DNA of 64,000 nucleotides from Hemiscyllium ocellatum (GCF_020745735.1 NC_083409.1:10157534-10221533), one strand, 5' to 3'; shown: positions 620-49,130, numbered from the stretch's first letter. The notes: a model not told the origin generated them from the letters alone. Program-made: numbers and translations.

Positions 620-3600
620 GTCATGGAGTTATACAGTGTGGAAACAGACCTTTCGGTCCAACTTGTGCATGTTAACCAGATATCCTAAATGACCTCATCA
701 CATTTGCCAGCATTTGGCTTACATCCCTCGAAACCCTTCCTATCCATGTACCCATCCCAATGTGTTTTAAATGTTGTAATTGTATCTGCCTCCAACATTT
801 TCTCTGGCAGCTCGATCCAGACACATACCACCCTCTGCGTGACAAGTTACCCCTTTTGTTTGGACTGCCCTTCCCAAGGAAAAGACTTGGATATACACCC
901 TGTCCATCTATAAACATCTATAAGGTCACCCCTCAGCCTTAGATGCTACAGGGGCAAGAGTCCCAGTCTATTCAGCCTCTCCCTACAGCTCAAACCCTCC
1001 AGTTTCTGCTCTTTGTAAATCTTTTCTACAACTTTTTAAGTTTAGCACCATCCTTCTTATCGCAGGATGATCAGAATTGTTCACATTATTCCCAAAGTGG
1101 CCTCACCAATCTCCTGTACAGCTACAACATGATGTTCCAACTCGTAAACTCAGTGCAGTAACCAATAAAGGCAAGTGTACCCAACACCTTTGTCATCACC
1201 CAATCTACTTGAGACTCCACTTTCAAGGAGTAATGCACCTGCACCTGCACCCCCAGGTCTCTTTTTTTCAGCAATACTCCACAGGGCCTTACCATTAACT
1301 GTATAACTCCTGCCCTGGTTTGCGTTTCCAAAATGCAACGTCTCATATTTGTCTGAACTGAACTCCATTTCCCACTCCTCTGTCTATTGCCCCATCTGAT
1401 CAAGGTCCCGCTGTACCCTGAGATAATCTTCTTCACTATCCACAGTCCAACCAATTTTGGTGTAATTTCCAAACTTAACATTAGTCCAATGTTCACATCC
1501 AATTCATTTACTCAATTGACGAAAAGTAGTGGACCAAGCACCAATCCTTGTGGCACACAGCTATTCACAGATCTTCACTGAGAACGCGACTCTCAGTTGG
1601 TGTGTTGCCTCCCAGGTGCCAGGATCCGTGTTGTCCTGGATCATGTCTTTGGGGTCCTGAAGGGAGAGGGTGCCCATCCCCAAGTCATTCTTTACATAGG
1701 TACCAATGACATAGGTAGAAAGAGGGATTGGGATGAAAGGCAGGATTTCAGGGAGCTAGGCAGGAAGCTGAGAGTTAAAACAAGCAGACTTGTTTTCTCT
1801 GGTTTGTTGCCTGGGCCATGTGATAGCGAGGCAAGGAATAGGGAGAGTTATCAGTTGAACATGTGGTTGCAAGGATGGTGCAGGAGGGAGGTTTCAGGTA
1901 CATGGATAATTGGGGCTCATTCTGGGGAAGGTGGGACTTGTACAAACAGGACGGTCTTCACTTGAACCAGAGGGGTACTAATATCCTGGGTGGAAATTTT
2001 GCTGGTGCTATTTGGGTGGGTTTAAACTAGCACAGCAGGGGGATTAGAACCTGAGATGTCATTCCAGTGCACAGGAGGATGAGAGTTGGGAGGGCATGGA
2101 CAGGATTTCATGGTCACAAGAAAGTGCTGGCAGATAGCAAGCTAATTTGAAGTATGTCTACTTCAATGCCAGAAGTTAGGTGAACTTGCAGCATAGTTAG
2201 GTACCTAGGACTTCGATGTTGTGGCCATTTTGAAGACATGGATAGAACAGGGTCAGGAATGTTGCAAGTTCCAGTGTTTAGATCTTTCGTTAAGAACAGG
2301 CAAGGCGGTAAAAGAGGGGAAGATGTGGCCTTGTTAGACAAAGATAGTATCATGTTGGCTGAAAGAACTTTTAACGAGGACTCATCTACTGAGGTACTAT
2401 GGGCTGAGTTGAGGAGAGGTCGCACTGCTGGGAGTTTTTTTTATTGGCCTCCGCAGAGTTCCAGGGGGTTGGAGGAGAGGATTGGCAGAATGATTCTGAG
2501 TAGGAGTGAAAGGAACCGGGTGATCATTATGGGGGTCTTGAACTTCTCCAACATTGACTGGAAATGCTATAACTCTAGGACGTCGGATGAATCAGTTTTG
2601 TCGAATGTGTGGAGGAAGGCTTCCTGACACAGCATGTCAAAGAGCTGACAAGAGGGGAGGCCACACTGGATCTGGTGCTTGGTGATGAACCAGGCCAGGT
2701 GGTTTTAGTTGTGGGTGAGAACTTTGGAGAGAGTCACCATAATTCAGTTACATTTAGTTTAGCAAAGGAAAGGGATAGATACATGCCACAGGGCAAGAGT
2801 TATCAATGGAGCAAGCGTTTAGTCAAGACTTAGGATGCATAGAATGGGGTAACAAAATGCGGGGGATGGGGCCAATCAAAATGTGGAGCTAGTTTAACAA
2901 ACAGATATTGTGTGGCCTTGATAGGTATGTCCCTGTCAGGCAGGGAGGAACTGATAAGGTAAGGGAACCATGGTTTATACAGAAATTGCATCTCTTGTTA
3001 AACGGAAGAAGGAGGCTTCTGTGACGATGAGACAAGATGGTTCAGATGAGGTGATGGAGAGTTACAGATTAGCTAGGGAGGATTTAAATAGAGAGTTAAG
3101 AAAATCAAAGAGAGGACATGAGCAATATTTAGCAGGTAGAATAAAGGAGAACCCTTAAGTTTTCTATAGGTATGCGAGGAATAAACTAGGGTAGGAAGAG
3201 GGCCAGTCAAAGACAGAAGTGGGAAGTTGTGTATGGGCCCTGTGGAGATTGGAGAGGTGCTAAATGAATATGTCTCATTGGTTTTCACTCAGGAAAAGGA
3301 GAATATTGTAGAGGAGAAGAATGAGATACGAGATATTAAACTAGAAAGGATCAAGGTTAGGGAAGAGGTGTTATGTATTCTAGTTGGAGTGAAAATAGAC
3401 AAGTCACCTATTTTGCGAGGATTTATCCGAGGATTCTCTGGGGAGCTAGGGAGGAGATAGTGAAGCCTATGGCTTTGATCTTTGAATCGTGATTGTCTAC
3501 AGGTTTAGGACCAGAAGACTGAGGGATTACAAACATTGTGCCCTTGTTCATGAATGGCACTAGAGATGACCCAGGTAATTATACACCAGCAAGTCTTACA

Positions 3601-6600
3601 TCTGTTGTAGGAAAAGTTTTGGAAAGGATTATAAGAGATAGGATTTATAATCATCTAGCAATAGTCAACATGGTTTTGTCGCGTGCAGGTCATGTCACAA
3701 ACCTCATTGAGTTTTTTTGAGAAGGTGACCAAGCATGTAGATGAAGGTAGGGCAGTTGACGTGATATACATGGACTTCAGTAAAGCCTTTGATCAGGTTC
3801 CACATGGTAGGCTGTTGGAGAAAATGTAGAGGCTTGGGACTGACAGTGATTTAGCAGTTTGGATTAGAAACTGGCTTCCTGAAAGATGGCAGCGAGTGGT
3901 GGTTGACAGAAAATATTCAACCTGGAGTCCAGTTACTAATGGTGTACCATGAGGATCTGTTTTGGGACCACTGCTGTTTGTCATTTTTATAAATGACTTG
4001 GATGCAGGCACAGGTGGATGGGTTAGTAAAATTGCAGGTGACATTAAAGTCGGTGGAGTGGTGGACATTGTGGAAGAATGTTGCATGCTGCAGGGGGTCT
4101 TGGATAAACTGCAAAATTGGGCTGAGAGGTGGCAGATGGAGTTCAATGCAGCTAAATGTGAGGTGATTCACTTTGGGAAGAATATCAGGAAGGCAGAGTA
4201 CTGGGTCAATGGAAAGATTCTTGGTAGTGCGGATATATAGAGGAATCTTGGAGTCCATTTACATAGATCCCTGAAAGTTGCTGCCCAGGTTGATAGTGCT
4301 GTTAAGAAGGCAGAGTGTGTGTTAAATTTTATTGATAGAGGGATTGAGTTCTGGAGCCGTAATGTCATGCTGCAGCTATACAAAACGTTAGTGCAGCTGC
4401 ACTCAGAATATTGTGTACAGTTCTGGTCGCCTCATTACAGGAAGGATGTGGAAGCATTGGAAAAGGCGCAGAGGAGATTTACCAGGATGTTGCCTGGTCT
4501 GGAGGGAAGGTCTTATGGGGAAAGGCTGAGAGACTTGGGTCTAATCTCATTGGCAAGAAGAATCCTAAGAGGGGATTTGAAAGAGACATACAAGATAATC
4601 AGAGGGTTAGATAGGGTAGAGAGTCAAAGTCTTTTTCCGAGGATGATGATGTCAAGTTATATGAGGGGGCATAACTACAAATTGAGGTGTGAAAGATTTA
4701 AAACAGATGTCAGAGGCAGATTCTTTACTCAGACAGTCGTAAGGAGTTGCAATGTCCTGCCTGCTGATGTAGCTGACTCAGTCACATTAGGGAGATTTAA
4801 ACAATCCTTAGATAAGTACATGGATGATGATGGGATAATGTAGAGGATGAGCTTAGATTGGTTCATAGGTCGGCGCAACATTGAGGGCTGAAAGGCCTGT
4901 TCTGCATGGTATTGTTCTATCTATCTCACTATCCAGTCTGAAAAGCAACCCTTTCCCACCACTCTCTGTTTCCTATCTTCAACCCAACTTTTTACCCGAA
5001 TGGCTTGCTCCCCCTGGATCCCATGTGGTCTAACCTTACAAACCAGTCTATTATGTGAAACCTTGTCAAACACTTTACTAAAGACCATATAGACAATGTC
5101 TACTGTTCTGCCTTCATTAATCTTCTTTGTCATCTCCTCAATCAAATTAGGGAAACACAATTTCCCATGCACAAAACCACATTGATTATCCAAATGGATG
5201 GAAATCCTGTCCCTCAGAATCCACTCCAACACCTTACCCAGCACTGACATCAGGCTCACTGGTCTATAGTTCCCTAGCTTTTCCTTACAGGCTTTCTGAA
5301 ATAATGGCATAACACCAGCCAACCTCTCCGGTTCTCCAGTACCTTACCCCTGCTTGTCGATGTTGAAAATATCTCAGCAAGGGGCCCAACAATCGCTTAC
5401 CTAATTTCCCACAATGTTCTGGGATACACCTGATCAGGTAATTGGGATTTATCTGCCTTTATATGTCTAAGACCTTCAACATCTCCTTATTTGTATGTGG
5501 ATTCTTTTTAAGACATCACCATTTTTCCAAAGTCCCGAGATTTCATGTCCTTCTCCGCAGTAAATACTGACCTGAAATATTTGTTTAGGATCTCAACCAT
5601 CTCCTGTGTCTTACTAAAATACAACACTCACATTTATCTGAATTAAACTCCATCTGCCATTCCTCAGCCCACTGGCTCAGTTGGTCAATATCCCATTGTA
5701 CTGTTAGACAGCCTTCTTCACTGGCCACGATGCCACCTGAAACTTCACCTGAACACACTCTCACAACTCTGGCCCTTCGCTACCCATTACTCTGCTACTA
5801 TCCCAATCTATATACTGAAATGAAATCCCACCGTCCTGCCCACACATTATAACGACACTATCACATTTTTAAGTCTCTGTAAATTCCTTATTTTTGTATT
5901 CCTCCACATCCTTCCCACTGGGTGGTGACTTATTGACGGCTCTGAGGATTCCATGGAGCTTGGTGTTCCTTGCTGATATTCCCCCCTGGTTCCCGCAGCC
6001 CTACCAAGTTAGTTTAAACCCTCTCCAACAGCACGAGTAAATCACCCCAAAGGAACGCAGTGCGAACTCTGTTCAGGATCAGCGCTGTCTGGTCTGTCCA
6101 GGTCCACCTCCCCCAGACCCACTCCCAATGTCTCAAGAATCTGAAGCCCTCCCTCCTGGATCCTCTTTCCAGCTCCACAGTCTTCTCGTGTTTCTATTCT
6201 TACTTGTGTGGGGCACTGGGTGTAATCCAAAGATTCTTATGTTTTAGTTCCTTCTGCTAATTCCTTCCTGAGCTCCTGAAATTCTGACTTCAAGAGCACA
6301 TCCCTTTTCTCCCTCTGTCACTGGGACCGATGTGGACCACGACTGCTGCCTGTTCCCCCTCTCCCCTCAGGGTGCTCTGCAGCCACTCAGTGACATCCTT
6401 GATCCTGGCACCAGGGAGACAACACACCATCCTGAATTCCCATCTGCAGCTGCAGAAACATCTATCGATTTCCCTCCCTTTCGAATCTCCTCCCACTATC
6501 ACTCTCCCAGTCTTCCTTGTGCCCCCCTGAATAGCTGCACCTCCTGTGATGCCATGGACTTGGCTCTGGCTACACTCTCCACATGAACCATCATTCTCAT

Positions 6601-15660: not shown

Positions 15661-17152
15661 ATGACATTGCTCACCACCGCTCTCTCCAGAACAATTAGGG
15701 AAGGACAATAAATAGCAGACAAATCAAAGTTTGCCCCATCCCAGCAGAAATCAAAATAAATGACGTACAATTCAAATGATTAAACTGGTGAGGCTTAAAT
15801 TCATCTCTTTGAAAGACTGGAGCCTCGGCCATGACATGGGTGAACCTGCATTTTTAAATTGCAAGGTGGTGTCCCCGACGGATCAGGCACAAAATGAATT
15901 ACACAAAGACCAAACAAATGGCTAGCAAAATGTGTCACCAAACTGCAATAAACAGCAATTTGTCAGGAAGAATTCAAGAGAAAGCCATTAGTGGGTGTAA
16001 GAGGGTAAGACAGACAAGTGTCAGATGTCATTGAATGCACCATAAATACATTGAAGCTGTTGGGATAGAGCAGGGCAATGGAATTAATTGAATTTTTCTA
16101 TTGAGAGATTTCCTGGTTGTAATGACCCAGAACGTTAAAAGGATGAAGTGTAACTCATATTGTAAACAATGTACTGCAGTGGGCAAGAAAGGATGTTGAG
16201 CAACATAAATGCTTAAAATTGGGAAAGAAAATCGGACAAAAAGAAATGGGAAAGGCCAGTGGGATTTTGGAATGAATATTGAGAGTGAGGAGATGAAGGG
16301 GAGAGTGGCCAGGACAGCTGTACTGAAGAATGGTTAGGTCACATCTGGGATATGGTGGATAGTTATGGGCTTCACTGAGGGGCAATGCAGAATGGTCCAG
16401 GGACAGGGGATCCAGGTTACAGGGAAACGCCAGAACAGGATCTCGAGGGGGGAGGGAGGGTATTCTGATAAGAAAATTTCTTTGTGAAATCGACACAGTA
16501 AATGTAGATTTACTGTCAATACCGACAAACAAAAAGGCAAAATGACATATCTCTGGTCATACACCAGGTACAGGAAGGAAATCAGGAAAAGTGTTTTGAC
16601 GCATAGATTGGAATTTAGTGAGTGCTGGTCAACTGGGTCCTCCATTCAAAATGGAACAGAATTACTTTTTGGAATTTGAACTGGTCTGAAGCAAAAGAAC
16701 AAATTAGGATCAAATAGTCATTTGAGAATATTGAACTGGCCCTGAAAAATGCCCAGTGTTTGGAAGCTTTTCATTTTCCCCTCATCAGGATAGTTGTAAA
16801 AGTACCAAACAAAGTACCAATCTCTCTCGGCGGAGCAGGTAACGGCTGTCTGGTGGTGTTTTTTGAATTCGCGGGTATAGTCCAGTTAGTGTTTTTTAAC
16901 AGTTAAAATTTAAAGTTTTTTTTAAGTGCCTAGCGGACCCGGAAGCTGGTGTCGCGCTAGGTTACCTGGGAAGGGTTTTTTTTTCTTATATAAGCGCACA
17001 GGTGAGGAACCCGAGGCACTACAGGGGTAGAGCCTCCCGCCCGCCCTCCTCCTCTAACCTAATAATAAGACCCGTTGTGGTAAGCAGGTAAGTGCTGCAT
17101 TTTGCTTGTTTGTTTCTTTAGGTCTAGTTTTTAAAGTTTACCTTTTAGAGGG

Positions 17153-18079
17153 ATGGCAGCGAAGGCAGTGCAATGTTCCTCTTGCAACATGTATGAGGTG
17201 AGGGAAGCCATTAGCGTCCCTGCTGATTACACTTGCAAGAAGTGCACCCATCTCCAGCTCCTCCAAGACCGTGTTAGGGAACTGGAGCTGGGGTTGGATG
17301 AACTCCGGATCATTCGGGAGGCAGAGCTGGTCATAGCTCGGAGCTTTAGGGAAGTAGTGACTCCGAAAGTTATAGAGAGATGGGTGACAGTGAGGGGGAG
17401 TGGGAGGAAGCAGACAGTGCAGGGACCCCCTGCGGTCATTCTCCTCAAGAACAAGTATACCGTTTTGGATACTTCTTGGGGGGATGACTTACCAGGGGTA
17501 AGCAAAGAGGTTCAGGCCTCTGGCACGGAGCCTGGTCCCGTTGCTCAGAAGGGAAGGGTGGAGAAAGGTAGAGCGATAGTTCTTGGGGACTCAATAGTGA
17601 GGGGCACAGATAGGTGGTTTTGTGGGGGCGACAGAGACTCACGATTGGTATGTTGCCTCCCAGGTGCAAGGGTACGTGATGTCTCTGATCGTGTTTTCCG
17701 GGTCCTTTAAGGGGAGGGGGAGCAGCCCCAGATCGTGGTCCACGTTGGCACCAACGACATAGGTAGGAAGAGGGGTGAGGATGTCAGGCAGGCTTTCAGG
17801 GAGCTAGGTTGGAAGCTCAGAGCTAGAACGAACAGAGTTGTTGTCTCTGGTTTGTTACCCGTGCCACGTGATAGGGAGTCGAGGAATAGGGAGAGAGAGC
17901 AGTTAAATGCGTGGCTACAGGGATGGTGCAGGAGGGAGGGTTTCCAGTTTCTGGACAACTGGAGTTCTTTCTGGGGAAGGTGGGACCTCTATAAACAGGA
18001 TGGTCTACACCTGAACCTGAGGGGCACCAGTATCCTTGGGGGGAGGTTTGCTAGTGCTCTTGGGGAGGGTTTAAACTAA
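17153..18079 (+). pseudogene. CR1 ORF1 (Cys-rich zinc-finger-like N-terminus, coiled coil, SGNH-type esterase) with one in-frame TAA at 17708-17710
   Basis: CSSC...CKKC, LQDRVRELELGLDEL, GDSIVRG, VVHVGTNDIG, DGLHL. ORFs 17153-17710 and 17735-18079 are in the same frame. Confidence 0.9.
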
Positions 18080-20963
18080 CTCTGCAGGGGCATGGGACCC
18101 TGGACAGTAGCTTTATGGTACAGGACCTTGAGTGTAGGGAGGTTAGGACCAAGGCATCGATCTCGAAGGAGGGTGCCTGTAAACAGAAAGGTGGCTTGAA
18201 GTGTGTATACTTCAATGCCAGAAGTATAAGAAATAAGGTAGGTGAACGTACAGCGTGGGTTGGTACATGGGACTTCGATGTTGTGGCCATTACAGAGCTG
18301 TGGGTTGAACAGGGGCAGGAATGGCTGTTGCAGGTTCCAGGGTTTAAATGTTTTAGCAGGGTCAGAGATGGGGGTAAAAGAGGGGGTGGTGTGGCATTGC
18401 TTGTCAAGGATAGTATTACAGCGGTGGAAAGGACGACGGAGGAAGACTTGCCATGTGAGGCAGTTTGGGCTGAGGTTAGAAATAGGAAAGGTGAGTTCGC
18501 CCTGTTAGGAGTTTTCTACAGGCCTCCCAATAGTCCGAGAGAAGTAGAAGAAAGTATTGCGAGGATGATTCAGGAGAAGAGTGAAAGTAGCAGGGTGGTT
18601 GTTATGGGGGACATTAACTTCCCAGATATTGACTGGGTAAGCTATAGCTCGAGTTCGTTAGATGGGTCGGTGTTTGTCCAATGTGTGCAGGAGGGTTTCC
18701 TGACACAATATGTAGACAGGCCAACAAGAGGTGAGGCTATACTGGATTTGGTTCTAGGTAATGAACCAGGCCAGGTGTTAGACTTGGACGTAGGTGAGCA
18801 CTTTGGGGACAGTGACCACAACTCGGTGACTTTTACTTTAGTGATGGAGAGGGATAAGTGTGCACTGCAGGGCAAGAGTTATAGCTGGGGGCAGGGAAAT
18901 TATGATGCGATGAGACAGGACTTAGGATGCGTGGATTGGAAAAATAGGCTTCAAGGGAAGAACACAAATGATATGTGGAGATTGTTCAAGAAACAGCTAT
19001 TGGGTGTCCTTGATAAGTATGTACCAGTCAGGCAGGGAGTAAAGGGTCTTGTGAGGGAGCCGTGGTTTAATAAGGAATTGGAATCCCTTGTGAAATGGAA
19101 GAGGGCGGCCTATGTAAAGATGAGGCGTGAAGGTTCAGTTGGTGCGATTGAGAGTTATAAGGTAGCCAGGAAGGATCTAAAGAGAGAGCTAAGAGCAGCG
19201 AGAAGGGGGCATGAAAAGTCCTTAGTTGGTAGGATTAGGGAAAAACCAAAGGCTTTCTATAGGTATGTCAGGAATAAAAGAATGACTAGGGTAGGTATCG
19301 GTCCAGTCAAGGATAGTAGTGGGAAGTTGTGCGTGGAGGCGGAGGAGATTGGAGAGACACTAAATCAATACTTTTCGTCAGTATTCACTCAGGAACAGGA
19401 CACTATTGCTGATGTGAATATTGAGTCACAAGTGATTAGAATGGATGGCCTTGAGGTATGTAGGGAAGAGGTCTGGGGAATACTGGAAAGGATGAAAATA
19501 GATTAGTTCCCTGGGCCTGATGACATTTATCCTAGGATCCTCTGGGAAGCTAGGGAGGAGATAGCAGAGCCATTGGCCTTGATTTTTAAGTCATCATTGT
19601 CTACGGGAATAGTGCCAGAAGACTGGAGGATAGCGAATGTGGTCCCCTTGTTCAAGAAGGGAGTAGGGATAGCCCGAGTAACTATAGGCCAGTGAGTCTC
19701 ACTTCTGTTGTGGGCAAAGTCTTAGAGAGAATTGTAAGGGATAGGATTTATGAACATCTGGATAGGAATAATGTGATCAAGGATAGTCAGCATGGTTTTG
19801 TGAAGGGCAGTTCGTGTCTCACAAACCTTATTGAGTTCTTTGAGAAGGTGACTAAGGAGGTGGACGAGGGTAAAGCAGTAGATGTGGTGTATATGGATTT
19901 TAGCAAGGCGTTCGATAAGGTACCCCATGGTAGGCTAATGCAAAAAATACGGAGGTATGGCATTGAGGGTGCATTAGAGGTTTGGATTAGGAATTGGCTT
20001 GCTGGAAGGAGACAGAGGGTAGTAGATGATGGAATAGGTTCATCTTGGAGTGCAGTTACTAGCGGTGTTCCACAAGGATCCGTTTTGGGACCATTGCTGT
20101 TTGTCATCTATATAAATGATCTAGAGGAGGGGCTTGAAAGCTGGGTGAGCAAGTTTGCGGATGACACGAAAGTCGGTGGAGTTGTGGACAGCGAAGAAGG
20201 ATGTGGCAGGTTACAGCGGGATATAGATAAGTTGCAGAGCTGGGCAGAAAGGTGGCAAATGGAGTTCAATGTAGCTAAGTGTGAAGTCATTCACTTTGGT
20301 AGGGGTAACAAGAAGATGGATTACTGGGCTAATGGTAGGCTACTTGGTAGTGTGGATGAGCAGAGGGATCTTGGTGTCCATGTACACAGATCTCTGAAAG
20401 TTGCCACCCAGGTAAATAGTACTGTGAAAACAGCATATGGTGTACTGGGCTTTATTGGTAGAGGAATTGAGTTCCGGAGTCCTGAGGTCATGTTGCAGTT
20501 GTATAAGACTCTGGTGCGGCCTCATCTGGAGTATTGTGTGCAGTTTTGGTGGCCATACTATAGGAAGGATGTGGAGGCATTGGAACGAGTGCAGAGGAGG
20601 TTTACCAGGATGTTGCCTGGCATGGTAGGAAGATTGTATGAGGAAAGACTGAGGCACTTGGGGCTGTTCTCATTGGAGAAAAGAAGGTTTAGGGGAGATT
20701 TGATAGAGGTGTACAAGATGATTAGGGGTTTAGATAGGGTCGACACTGAGAACCTTTTTCTGTTAATGGAGTCAGCTGTTACTAGGGGACACAGCTTTAA
20801 ATTAAGGGGTGGTAGGTATAGGACAGATGTTAGGGGTAGATTCTTTACTCAGCGGGTTGTGAGTTCATGGAATGCCCTGCCAGTAGAAGTGGTGAACTCT
20901 CCCTCTTTATGGTCATTTAAGCGGGCATCGGATAAGCATATGGAGGTTATTGAGCTAGTGTAG
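18070..20963 (+). pseudogene. CR1 ORF2 (APE endonuclease plus reverse transcriptase) with a TAG at 19504-19506 and a 1-bp deletion at ~19660
   Basis: YFNARSIRNK, GVFYRPPNS, MGDINFPDIDW, LDLVL, GDSDHN (endonuclease); DFSKAFDKVPH, GVPQGSVLGPLLF, SKFADDTK (RT). Confidence 0.93.
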
Positions 20964-22349
20964 GTTAGGTAGACTTTGGTCGGCACAACATCGAGGGCCG
21001 AAGGGCCTGTACTGCACTGTATTTTTCTATGTTCTATGTTCTAAAGGAGAAAAACATGACATTTATATTGCATATGAGGAAAGTGCTGATTGGTTGAGAT
21101 GTTGTGACTATGAACACGACAGTTTAAATATTGTTTTCCTTTGCTGTGGCATTTCTTGTAAATTGTCCTGATGCATGAAAGACATAAAGCTTCAACAAAA
21201 TGTTTTGTTTTTCGCAACATTCAAATTAGGATCAGTTTGGAAAGAAAGAATGAACATGAAAATGTATTAAGTTAACAATGAAAATTGGTGTAAATTCAGC
21301 AGACACCAGGATAGCTTCACCTTGAACTTAGTACAGGAATTACCAGATTTAACTACCTTCCACCAGTTTGATTGTTTGAATTGCTCATCAGTTATTTTGG
21401 TTACTCCTCGGATGGGGAGGACATCGATATGTCTGCTGTTTATTGCCCTTCCCTAACTATCCTGGAGAGGGCAGTAGTGAGCCATGAGTTTCTCGAAGAG
21501 GATCTGACGGGACAAGATCATGTGCTGGGCCTGAGTACAGTTTTCCGCAGGAGAATGAGCTGTGGCACAAGGGAAAACCTGGGAGTGGTGAAAAGGCACA
21601 GGCAGCCTGGCTAGGCTGCAGAGGGACAGAACCAGGTTTGATGAATATGCTGACGTCCTTCTGAGCTGAGTTGCAGACTCAGACTTTCAGGGCCGCACAG
21701 CTTACACTGTTACTGATCATAGCTCCATGGTTGATGAGCCCTTCCCCAGGAGAACATCCACAGAAAGCTGCCTCCTGTGTGTCTGATGTGTCTGTGTGTC
21801 TCTCAGACGTGACTGAGCAGACAGCGAGGGTCTTAGCAGCAACAAAGGTGTTACTCTAGTGCCCCTCCCACTTTCACCCATCAACTTACAAACTTTTCTG
21901 GAGAAAGAGCTCAGCACCTGCCATCGCCTGCTTCAATGTGTCCTACACCCCACCTCAAGACAACTGAACCCACTGCCCCCTGCCCCTATCATCTGTTCAC
22001 CATCTCTCTCCTTAAGGCGCCATCTCTGGCTGGGAAGCATCTCTAGCCTCCCCAGATGGTCTCATTCCTCCACGTGTGGCCTGGGATGGTGAAGCAAGGC
22101 AGGCTCTTGGACTGGGATGTGTCAGTCTGGTGTCAGTGGGGAGCACTCTCCCCTCCCACTCACAATGTTACAGACTGGGTGGATAAGCCATTGGGAAATG
22201 CAGGGTTACAGGGATAGTGCAGTGGTTTGGATCTGGGTGGGACGCTCTTTGGAGCATTGGTGAGAACTCATTGGAATGAATGGCCTGCTTCAACATTATA
22301 CAGATCCCATCATTACATGATTCTATCACTGAAGCAAATTATCCAGACT

Positions 22350-40508: not shown

Positions 40509-40675
40509 AAAACAGGATGGTCTACACCAGAACCTGAGGGGCACCAGTATCCTTGGGGGGAGGTTTGCTCGTGCTCTTTTGCGGGGCTTAAACTAACTCT
40601 GCAGGGGCATGGAAACCTAGACGGTAGCTTTAGGGTGCAGGACCTGGAGTTTAGGGAGGTTAGGAACATGGCAGC
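40509..40675 (+). mobile_element. Isolated internal CR1 fragment covering the ORF1/ORF2 junction
   Basis: Closely matches 17995-18160 and has no CR1 3' tail. Confidence 0.85.
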
Positions 40676-46469: not shown

Positions 46470-49130
46470 CAGGATACTTTGCAGTTCCTGGAATGCCATG
46501 ATTACAGGAAGTGTGGTCAGTGACAGCAGTTGGAACTCTGGATTTTGGAGCTTGAGCAGCAGCTGGTGTCAGTGCGGAGCGTCCGTGAGGCTGAGAACTC
46601 CATGGAGAGCACGTTTCTAGATGTGGTCATATGCAGCTTCAGAGTATGCAGGGAGAGAGGGAATGGGGGAGCAGCAGACAGTCCAAAAGGACCAGGCAGC
46701 TAGTGCAGGAATCCCCTGAGTGCATCCCACTCTCCAACCAGGATTCAGTTCAGAATCCTGATGAGAATGATGGTTAATCTGGGGAGTGCAGCCAGAGCCA
46801 AGTCCCTGGCACCACGGGGGGCTCAGCTGTACAGGGGGGCACAAGAAGACTGGAAGAGTGAGAGGAGAGGAGATTCAAGAGTGAGGGCAATCGATAGGTG
46901 TTTCTGCAGCTGCAGATGGGAATCCAGGATGTTGTGTTGTCTCCCTGGTGACAGAGTGAAGGATGTCACTGAGCGGCTGCAGAGCACCCTGAGGGGAGAG
47001 GGGGAACAGGCAGCAGTTGTGGTCCACATCAGTCCCAGTGACAGAGGGAGGAAAGGGATGTGGTCCTCCAGTCAGAATTTAGGGAGCTTGGGAGGAAATT
47101 AGGAGCAGGAGCTAAAAGGTAGGAATCTTCAGATTCCTCCCATTATCCCATGCAAGTGAGAAGAGGAACAGGAGGGTAACGCAGGTGACTGTGGAGCTGG
47201 AGAAAAGGTCCAGGAGGGAGGGCTTTAGATTTTTGGGACATTGAGAGTGGGTCTGGGGGAGATGGCACCTGGACAGACCTGACAGTGTTGCTCCTGAACA
47301 GAGCTGGGACTGAGTTCCTTTGTGGTGATTTACTCGTGCTGTTGGAGAGGGTTTAAACTAACTTGGCAGGGCTGTGAGAGCCGGGGGGAATATCAGAGAG
47401 GAACACCAAGGTCCACAGAATTCTCAGTGCAGTCAATAAGTCACCACCCAGTGGGAAGGATGTGAAGGAATACAAATGCAAGGAATTTACAGAAACCTAC
47501 AAATATGTTAGAGTCGTTATAAATTGGGGGAAGGGGTCTTTAATTTCTGAATATAGACAGGGGTAGTAGCAATGTAAAGGGCAGAGAGGGGCCAAAGGTG
47601 TGAGACTTTGTTCAGGTGAATTTTCAGGTGGCATCGTGGCCAGTGAAAAAGGCTGTCTAAGAGTACATGGGATCTTGACCAACTGGGCCAGTGGGCTGAG
47701 GAATGGCAGATGGAGTTTAATTCAGATAAATGTGAGTGCTGTATTTTGGTAAGACACAGGAGATGGGTGAGATCCTCAACAAATATTTCAGGTCAGTATT
47801 TATTGTGGAGAATGACATGAATGCAAGGGAATTTGGAAAATATAGCGCTGCTTTCAAAAAGTCCACAATACAAATGAGGAGATGCAAAAGGTCTTTAAAC
47901 ATATAAAGGTACGTAAATCCCTAGGATCTGATCAGGTGTATCCCAGAACATTGTGGGAACTAGGGAAGAGATTGCTGGGCCCCTTGCTGAGATATGTTTA
48001 TCATCGACAACTACAGGTAAGGTGTTGGAGAACCAGAGAGGTTGGCTACTGTTGTATCATTATTTCAGAATGGCTATAAGGAAAAGCCAGGGAACTATAG
48101 ACCAGTGAGCATGATGTCAGTGCTGGGTAAGATGTTGGAGTGGATTCTGAGGGATAGGATTTCCTTCCATTTGGATAATCAATGTGGTTTTGTGCATTGG
48201 AAATTGTGTCTCCATTATTTAATTGAGGAGGTGACAAAGAAGATTGATGAAGGCAGAACAGTAGACAGTGTCTGTATGGACTTCAGTAAAGTATTTGACA
48301 AGGTTCCACATGATAGACTGGTTCGTAAGGTTAGACCACATGGGATCCAGGGGAAGCTAGCCATTTGGGTAAAAACATTAGCTTGAAAATATGAGAGAGG
48401 GAGTGGTGGTAAAGGGTTGATTTTCAGATTGGAGAGCTGTGAATAGCTGTGTGCCGCAAGGAGTGGTGCTGGGTCCACTGCTTTTGGTCATTTAAATAAA
48501 TGATTTCACTGTGAATATAGGAGTTAACATAAGTTTGTAAATGACATCAAAATTGGTGGGACAGTGGATATTGAAGAAGATTATCTCAGGGTACAGTGGG
48601 ACCTTGATCAGATGGGGCAATGGGCAGAGATGTGGCAAATGGAGTTCAGTTTAGATAAATGTGAGCTGTTGCATTCTGGAAAGGCAAACCAGGGCAGGAC
48701 TTATACAGTTAATGGGAGGGCCCTGTGGAGTGTTGCTGAACAAATTGACTGAGGGGTGAGGGGTGAGGGGTGAGGTGAGGGTGAGGGGTGAAGGTGAAGG
48801 TAAGGGTAAGCTGCATTATTCCTTAAAACTGGATCACAGGGAGACAGGGCGATGAAGAAGGTTTTGGGAACGTTTACCTTTATTGGTCACTGTGTTGAGT
48901 ATCGGAGTTGGGACATCATGTTGCAGCTGTACAGGAGATTGGTGAGGCCATTTTGGGAATAATGTGAACAATTCTGATCTTTCTGTGATAGGAAGGATGT
49001 TGTTAAACTTTTAAAAGGTGCAGAAAGAGATTTACAAAGATTTTGCTAGGAATTGAAGGGTTTGAATGATAGGGAGAGGATAAATAAACTGGTGCAATTT
49101 TTCCTGCAGCATTGGAGGCTGAGAAATTTA
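46470..49130 (+). mobile_element. Old, internally deleted CR1 LINE (ORF1 and ORF2 remnants); inverted paralog of 620-6850 lacking the younger insertion
   Basis: ORFs 46761-47102, 48042-48386 and 48564-48752 match ORFs 6290-6823, 4921-5322 and 1150-1368. Confidence 0.82.

Follow-up and report, generated by a model that had tools for sequence, protein, structure and literature searches.

A conserved slippery heptamer at the end of ORF1 suggests a programmed -1 frameshift in CR1-type LINEs of Hemiscyllium ocellatum

We analysed a stretch of 64,000 nucleotides (nt) of Hemiscyllium ocellatum DNA (GCF_020745735.1 NC_083409.1:10157534-10221533; genome of 3.98 Gb), hereafter the window, which holds a long interspersed nuclear element (LINE) with two open reading frames (ORFs), ORF1 and then ORF2. 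Our subject is the junction of the two, where ORF1 ends in a slippery heptamer that may direct a -1 ribosomal frameshift into ORF2. ORF1 matches the SGNH esterase domain PF13472 (E value 3e-13), and ORF2 matches PF03372, PF14529 and PF00078, an APE endonuclease with a reverse transcriptase (RT). The nearest named relatives of ORF1 are from sharks and rays (73% for Mustelus and 70% for Stegostoma), and the ORF1 ends match proteins of sharks, rays, lizards and birds and differ from ZfL2-1. Esterase ORF1, APE/RT ORF2 and 3' repeats make this a CR1-type LINE, with the ORF1 ends as the basis for calling it CR1 over L2; an SGNH-esterase ORF1 occurs in some L2 elements as well and so is not exclusive to CR1 (PMC13343379, available portion). 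The copy in the window is dead, with a stop in ORF1, a stop in ORF2 (19504-19506) and a frameshift near 19660, and its sister copies have an intact ORF1 of 308 amino acids. Hence, function has to be read from the family of this copy.

ORF1 ends in GGT TTA AAC TAA at 18068-18079, and T_TTA_AAC stands in the ORF1 frame at 18070-18076. From 18055 onward the -1 frame, which is that of ORF2, has no stop and encodes the endonuclease. Both points had been made in a preliminary description of the window and hold, as does its listing of the heptamer followed by TA at three other junctions (2021 +, 6012-6018 - and 47352 +), to which we add a fifth at 40587. TTTAAACTA occurs four times in the window (2021 +, 6010-6018 -, 18070 + and 47352 +) vs 0.39 expected from shuffles, and all four occurrences are ORF1 ends. 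Because the copies are related, function cannot be argued from this excess by itself; the evidence comes from the test of synonymous sites.

To sample the genome without selection, we took 400 kb (200 kb over three contigs and 200 kb beside the window) and located ORF1 ends by protein similarity, ignoring the heptamer. Of the 15 ends found, 3 were members of family B, 6 carried the exact heptamer and 6 differed from it at one base. Further, targeted genome searches gave 10 families, and excluding B and C left eight dispersed families, A (that of the window copy), D, E, F, G, H, I and K, with 11-30 copies each that diverge by 0.5-23% from the family majority. Family C (47352 onward; L101-L130) keeps the ORF1 end, the heptamer and the linker and lacks the endonuclease start; it is an internally deleted derivative. 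A metagenome scan with the ORF1 alignment added 46 host-derived loci, 22 without an ORF1 end, 5 ending before the junction and 19 covering it; ten of these contigs, chosen for an in-frame LN-stop end, complete the set of 18 lineages. Nine of the ten are nearest to bird-type ORF1 proteins (P0083, named Rissa tridactyla, and P0086), and L191 is distant.

The majority sequence is TTTAAAC in all eight dispersed families. Copies with the exact heptamer number 30/30, 29/30, 25/30, 29/30, 30/30, 22/30, 6/20 and 9/11 in families A, D, E, F, G, H, I and K, respectively, and their share declines with family age. The leucine codon of the heptamer is TTA in 18/18 lineages and the asparagine codon is AAC in 18/18. 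Among 44 conserved ORF1 and endonuclease columns (one amino acid in at least 80% of the 18 lineages), a single codon is used only in the two heptamer columns and in 0/42 others; elsewhere TTA makes up 51 of 360 leucine codons (14%). The base before TTA is T in 17/18 lineages, under seven different amino acids. On the tree, control leucine columns have 4-7 codon changes, two- and three-codon columns have 1-5, and the heptamer codons have none; in the codon preceding them the amino acid changes seven times and the third base once (to G). Since the lineages are related, these controls are a yardstick and not 18 independent draws. Hence, the heptamer is under selection at the nucleotide level, and every letter of it is kept as far as bird-like elements. 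Three bases 5' of the heptamer (18067), a third-position G is found in 16/18 lineages despite amino acid changes, which may be an effect of upstream context.

The same base preference can be seen at the protein level in 116 LN-ending ORF1 relatives from sharks, rays, lizards, birds and unnamed sources. Only 1 of the 116 has E, Q, K, M or W, residues whose codons cannot end in U, directly before the terminal LN, whereas these residues make up 35% and 33% at the two positions that follow in the comparison. The terminal LN is kept although its spacing from the catalytic DGxH motif varies from 25 to 39 amino acids; the alignment with the ZfL2-1 esterase, for which a crystal structure exists, stops at the last helix, and LN is absent there. 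In a wider search, 50 of 99 complete esterase C-termini had LN at the end and 49 had other endings. Hence, only some of the esterase LINEs carry the heptamer signal. Eight distant esterase ORF1s end in QGN and one in SGN (P0143, P0144, P0145, P0153, P0154, P0168, P0189, P0204 and P0209), and, judged from these protein ends, they could encode a G_GGA_AAC slip site. KN, SN or EN is the ending of a few others in this distant group.

Between the heptamer and the first endonuclease motif, the -1 frame has no stops in 8/8 dispersed families and the +1 frame has 3-8. This motif lies at codon 49-71 in the eight families (40-90 with the contigs included), and ORF2 is in the -1 frame in 14/14 lineages in which it can be placed (8/8 families and 6/6 contigs). 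Upstream of the heptamer, 6/8 families have a stop in the -1 frame at a distance of 1-13 codons. Codon-position bias in the linker amounts to a slight third-position excess only and is uninformative.

In family G, we selected 20 copies with an intact ORF1. In each of them the first methionine of ORF2 is at codon 122/123, past the N (49) and E (76) motifs of the endonuclease, and 13 of them have 963-964 open ORF2 codons. The majority first methionine is at codon 145 in family D, 86 in E and 162 in K, and open copies without a methionine before the endonuclease number 27/28 in G, 11/11 in D and 14/16 in E. Where the window copy has ATG (18115-18117), the youngest sister family has AGG, as do 3/30 copies of family A. 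Family G is the youngest (0.5% diverged), with more than 100 copies that have an uninterrupted ORF1 and some that have target-site duplications (L267-L296 and L392-L411), and its LINE probably continues to transpose in this species. Without a usable start codon, the ORF2 of the youngest family is likely made by slippage of one base back. Two outcomes that the preliminary description had named as contrary to a frameshift, free synonymous variation at the heptamer and a conserved ORF2 ATG, were not seen: TTA and AAC are invariant, the third-position T is held beyond amino acid need and, in several families, the endonuclease is not preceded by any AUG.

The preliminary description had also joined the heptamer to a downstream hairpin as a coronavirus-type signal. 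The pairs it gave (18082-84 with 18105-07 and 18085-89 with 18098-102) do form in the window copy, but the hairpin is specific to that copy. It needs 18098C and 18106A, which are private to the window copy and a near-identical duplicate (2/30; the other 28 have A and T); its energy is -12.1 kcal/mol with these bases vs -8.3 kcal/mol in the A/T version, and it is no more stable than shuffles (z = -1.02; 33/200 shuffles as good). We rejected it as a frameshift stimulator, and with no conserved local structure in the 18 lineages the coronavirus-type combination falls. The proposed frameshift passes those tests that could be run on sequence (heptamer, third-position T and lack of an ORF2 AUG) and fails in its hairpin part.

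A G-rich motif at a fixed distance is conserved instead. Counted from the heptamer, GGGG at +11 to +14 (18087-18090) is present in 18, 18, 17 and 18 of the 18 lineages, G at +8 in 16, and GGG at +18 to +20 in 15, 16 and 15; positions +3 to +7 have 4-8 changes on the tree. G at +11 is the third position of codon 6 and is found under CAG, TGG, CGG, GGG, AGG, AAG and TTG (seven codons for six amino acids). Hence, the constraint is on the RNA. A stop in the 0 frame follows the heptamer within one or two codons in 18/18 lineages, and family F (TTTAAAC TTC TGA) keeps the heptamer and the G motif with its stop shifted by one codon. Hence, the G motif is tied to the heptamer and not to termination. 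This linear motif and the nearby 0-frame stop, and not the hairpin, form the conserved 3' element. Two other candidates were rejected as common elements, a G-quadruplex (predicted with two tiers only, in 4/18 lineages) and a tandem slip site G_GGU_UUA (5/18). The features of the locus are given in Table 1.

Table 1. Coordinates of the element copy and of related junctions in the window
Feature	Position	Strand	Remark
C-rich 5' untranslated region (UTR) motif	17033..17059	+	Common to several families; possible promoter element
ORF1	17153..18079	+	308 codons, C-terminal SGNH esterase; premature stop 17708-17710 in window copy
Overlapping upstream heptamer G_GGT_TTA	18067..18073	+	5/18 lineages only, hence not the conserved site
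Slippery heptamer T_TTA_AAC	18070..18076	+	In ORF1 frame
ORF2, -1 frame	18070..20963	+	Linker of ~43 codons, APE endonuclease, RT
ORF1 stop	18077..18079	+	Adjoins heptamer; next codon in 17/18 lineages, one codon later in family F
Hairpin of the preliminary description	18082..18107	+	Copy-specific, not a family feature
G-rich motif	18084..18097	+	Linear, conserved; putative stimulator
In-frame ORF2 ATG, codon 16	18115..18117	+	Family A (window copy) only
Element 3' end	21025..21043	+	Short tandem 7-base repeats, without poly(A)
Junction, family E-type copy	2021..2027	+	Same heptamer
Junction, family C-type copy	6012..6018	-	Same heptamer
Fifth junction, absent from the preliminary description	40587..40593	+	CTTAAAC (one mismatch), AGG at ATG position, truncated downstream
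Junction, family C copy	47352..47358	+	Same heptamer; family without endonuclease start

From the sequence comparisons, we put the probability of a programmed -1 frameshift at U_UUA_AAC, producing an ORF1-ORF2 (endonuclease-RT) fusion, at roughly 0.78. The leucine and asparagine tRNAs would slip from UUA AAC to UUU AAA. The majority of ribosomes would stop at the next codon and release the ORF1 protein (ORF1p), and a minority would slip and make, at low frequency, an esterase-linker-endonuclease-RT fusion some 1,270 residues long, in which the linker would vary from 35 to 85 residues; in family A the transframe junction would read ...EGLN-LTLQG. The weaker steps concern stimulation, which may come from the adjacent stop and the G-rich motif 10 nt downstream and not from a local hairpin; the motif would most plausibly be a protein-binding site.

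Several observations weigh against this frameshift. The usual stimulator is missing, since no conserved stem-loop was found downstream in the 18 lineages (mean z of -0.03, 0.17 and -0.18 over 45, 80 and 150 nt, with no dedicated pseudoknot search), the junction has no Rfam match, and the G motif has no common long-range pairing partner, its best sites differing by family. The open-frame argument is tempered by the 0 frame, which is likewise free of stops across the linker in 4/8 families (A, D, E and G). No natural in-frame ORF1-ORF2 fusion was found in a weak search, in which 7997 long candidates gave one unrelated chimera. The contig lineages were preselected for an intact LN-stop end, and of the 19 contigs that cover the junction only 15 have the exact heptamer; one has G_TTA_AAC, two are decayed and one, from another clade, has none. 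Family B reads TTCAAAA in 30/30 copies, but was rejected as a counter-example because its copies have stops in common and are 85-94% identical across their entire 10-kb surroundings, which marks them as segmental duplications of a dead copy. AUGs also occur near the stop: UAAUG overlaps in family H (7/7 open copies) and L235, an AUG at codon 5 in four bird-type contigs (GTG, TCG or TGG in the others) and an AUG at codon 16-19 in families A, F and I.

These AUGs likewise favour the main rival of the frameshift, termination-reinitiation after the ORF1 stop, in which ORF2 would begin at an AUG or non-AUG codon while heptamer, stop and G motif hold the ribosome. A UGGGA word, which resembles the calicivirus reinitiation motif, lies within the G motif of 7/8 dispersed families, but it sits 3' of the stop and is absent from family F and the bird-type contigs. 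The UAAUG overlap is not conserved (2/18 lineages, H and L235), and no start or near-cognate codon is conserved at codons 4/5, where CCG, CAG, AGG, AGT, TGG and TCG occur among others. Precedents exist in the UAAUG coupling of SART1 (PMC3708506) and in L1, which is thought to be AUG-independent (PMC5009743), both from the available portions of these papers. Nevertheless, reinitiation leaves unexplained the exact X_XXY_YYZ form, the -1 frame of ORF2 in all 14 placeable lineages and the heptamer that family F keeps while its stop moves, and we consider it unlikely.

A splice signal is a far weaker contender. The window copy reads ...CTAAC TCTGCAG G..., in which a CUAAC branch point and a CAG acceptor (18085-87) could yield a spliced ORF2 or fusion mRNA, AG stands at +10/+11 in 11/18 lineages (codon 6 CAG or AAG), and donor-like GGTAAG words occur in the 5' UTR. 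However, the acceptor site is CCGCGG in the youngest family and TGG in D and F, most lineages have CTAG rather than CTAA, the branch point would be less than 10 nt from the AG, and unselected DNA (464 kb) contained 11 endonuclease starts immediately preceded by an ORF1 end, every one of them an unspliced junction. We found no spliced copies among 20 of family G. In contigs from sequencing runs, whose RNA status is guessed and whose small shares make them too thin a basis, one contig of another organism crosses the junction unspliced, and no joint of the 5' end to the linker is among the 15 of 48 joints listed. Between 16960 and 17150, the 5' UTR has donor-like GGTAAG words and then pyrimidine tracts with an AG just 5' of the ORF1 ATG.

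Constraint on the proteins, by which ORF1 must end in Leu-Asn and an ORF2 initiating just upstream must start F-K-L..G-x-G so that overlapping codons fix the bases, could draw on the terminal LN and on the recurring -1 frame peptide F-K-L-x-x-x-G-x-G, but it is largely refuted and least likely of all, because the -1 frame of family F is closed one codon upstream, A, D, E, F, G, I and K have no upstream AUG in that frame, the third-position G of codon 6 is a nucleotide constraint, and AAT, which fits both frames, is never used.

Other observations concern the 5' UTR and the wider occurrence of these LINEs. The 5' UTRs of families A, E, F, G, H and K are unrelated except for a conserved C-rich motif that ends in CTCTAA, and the bird-type L194 has a similar C-rich motif upstream. 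It scores high as a pairing partner of the G motif in F, K and L194 only; an internal promoter element or a pairing partner is possible. The region of contig G000 C9 from ~5 to 24 Mb, which includes the surroundings of the window, is a large segmental-duplication array, in which old dead LINE copies recur dozens of times with their flanks, as they do near the starts of several other contigs. No relatives were found in viral contigs. Bacterial genome contigs gave 21 loci, among them one distant LINE, L454, which lacks the heptamer and whose -1 overlap spans 154 nt. Animal LINE sequences filed as bacterial include P0006, labelled Pseudomonas, with an esterase 73% like the window ORF1, and a LINE in a Sedimenticola metagenome-assembled genome (L453-L455); these are likely host contamination of public assemblies.

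How ORF2 is translated in two-ORF LINEs has been called an open, important question (PMC3894237, available portion). In the literature on frameshifting or fusion in CR1, LINEs and other elements without long terminal repeats (non-LTR), we found no report for CR1; the original CR1 descriptions or Repbase may contain an earlier remark. The available portion of a 2026 CR1 survey has no mention of frameshift, overlap or translation (PMC13343379), that of PMC11835228 mentions a frameshift for ALV only, that of an extensive review on frameshifting does not list CR1 (PMC5009743), and those of PMC4255032, PMC2734521, PMC3905857 and PMC4120745 report no CR1 -1 frameshift.

If the frameshift occurs, the ORF2 protein of CR1, the dominant LINE of most non-mammalian vertebrates, would be tethered to a membrane-binding esterase ORF1p, and frameshift efficiency would set the ratio of ORF1p to RT. 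Placing the start of CR1 ORF2 at its first AUG, as annotations do, would then remove part of the endonuclease, and the number of CR1 copies scored as 'intact' would change. Among eukaryotic recoding signals, a G-rich stimulator that works without structure would be of a new type. A wider generalization is tentative, and we rate it somewhat below an even chance: canonical CR1 would make RT only as a Gag-Pol-like ORF1-ORF2 fusion, through a -1 frameshift conserved from sharks to birds that uses a protein-bound G-rich motif and the adjacent stop with no RNA structure, and distant QGN-ending esterase LINEs would use G_GGA_AAC.

Among known systems, coronaviruses and retroviral gag-pol are alike in the frame relation and in having a structural protein 5' and a polymerase 3', and the same heptamer is named for the coronavirus infectious bronchitis virus; mammalian ribosomes shift on U_UUA_AAC more readily than on most heptamers, and protein-stimulated and stop-dependent frameshifts exist (PMC5009743, available portion). 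The coronavirus and retroviral sites have a pseudoknot or stem-loop a few bases downstream, whereas CR1 has no conserved structure and a stop directly after.

In porcine reproductive and respiratory syndrome virus, an arterivirus, the motif at the nsp2 site is C-rich and spaced by about 10 nt; that of CR1 is G-rich, and a protein acting on it in trans is putative. The likeness is that a protein-bound linear motif, and not a structure, drives the arterivirus frameshift, with nsp1beta and poly(C)-binding protein acting in trans (PMC5009743). In pea enation mosaic umbravirus, efficiency depends on a stop located 3 nt beyond the shift site (PMC5009743), and family F has that geometry; this plant RNA virus differs in its heptamer and in having 3' structures, and the stop is adjacent in 17/18 CR1 lineages.

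SART1, with UAAUG coupling, and L1, with AUG-independent ORF2, are likewise two-ORF LINEs that need little ORF2 protein, and family H also has UAAUG; they make separate proteins, and the available portions of the sources describe no conserved slippery heptamer for them. The Dictyostelium elements TRE5-A and TRE3-A differ in being amoebozoan and targeted to tRNA genes, with an unrelated ORF1 and a slip site that is absent from the review legend (PMC5911963, available portion). They are, however, APE-type non-LTR elements, and according to that figure legend their ORF2 needs a -1 frameshift. Hence, -1 frameshifting is not unheard of in LINEs.

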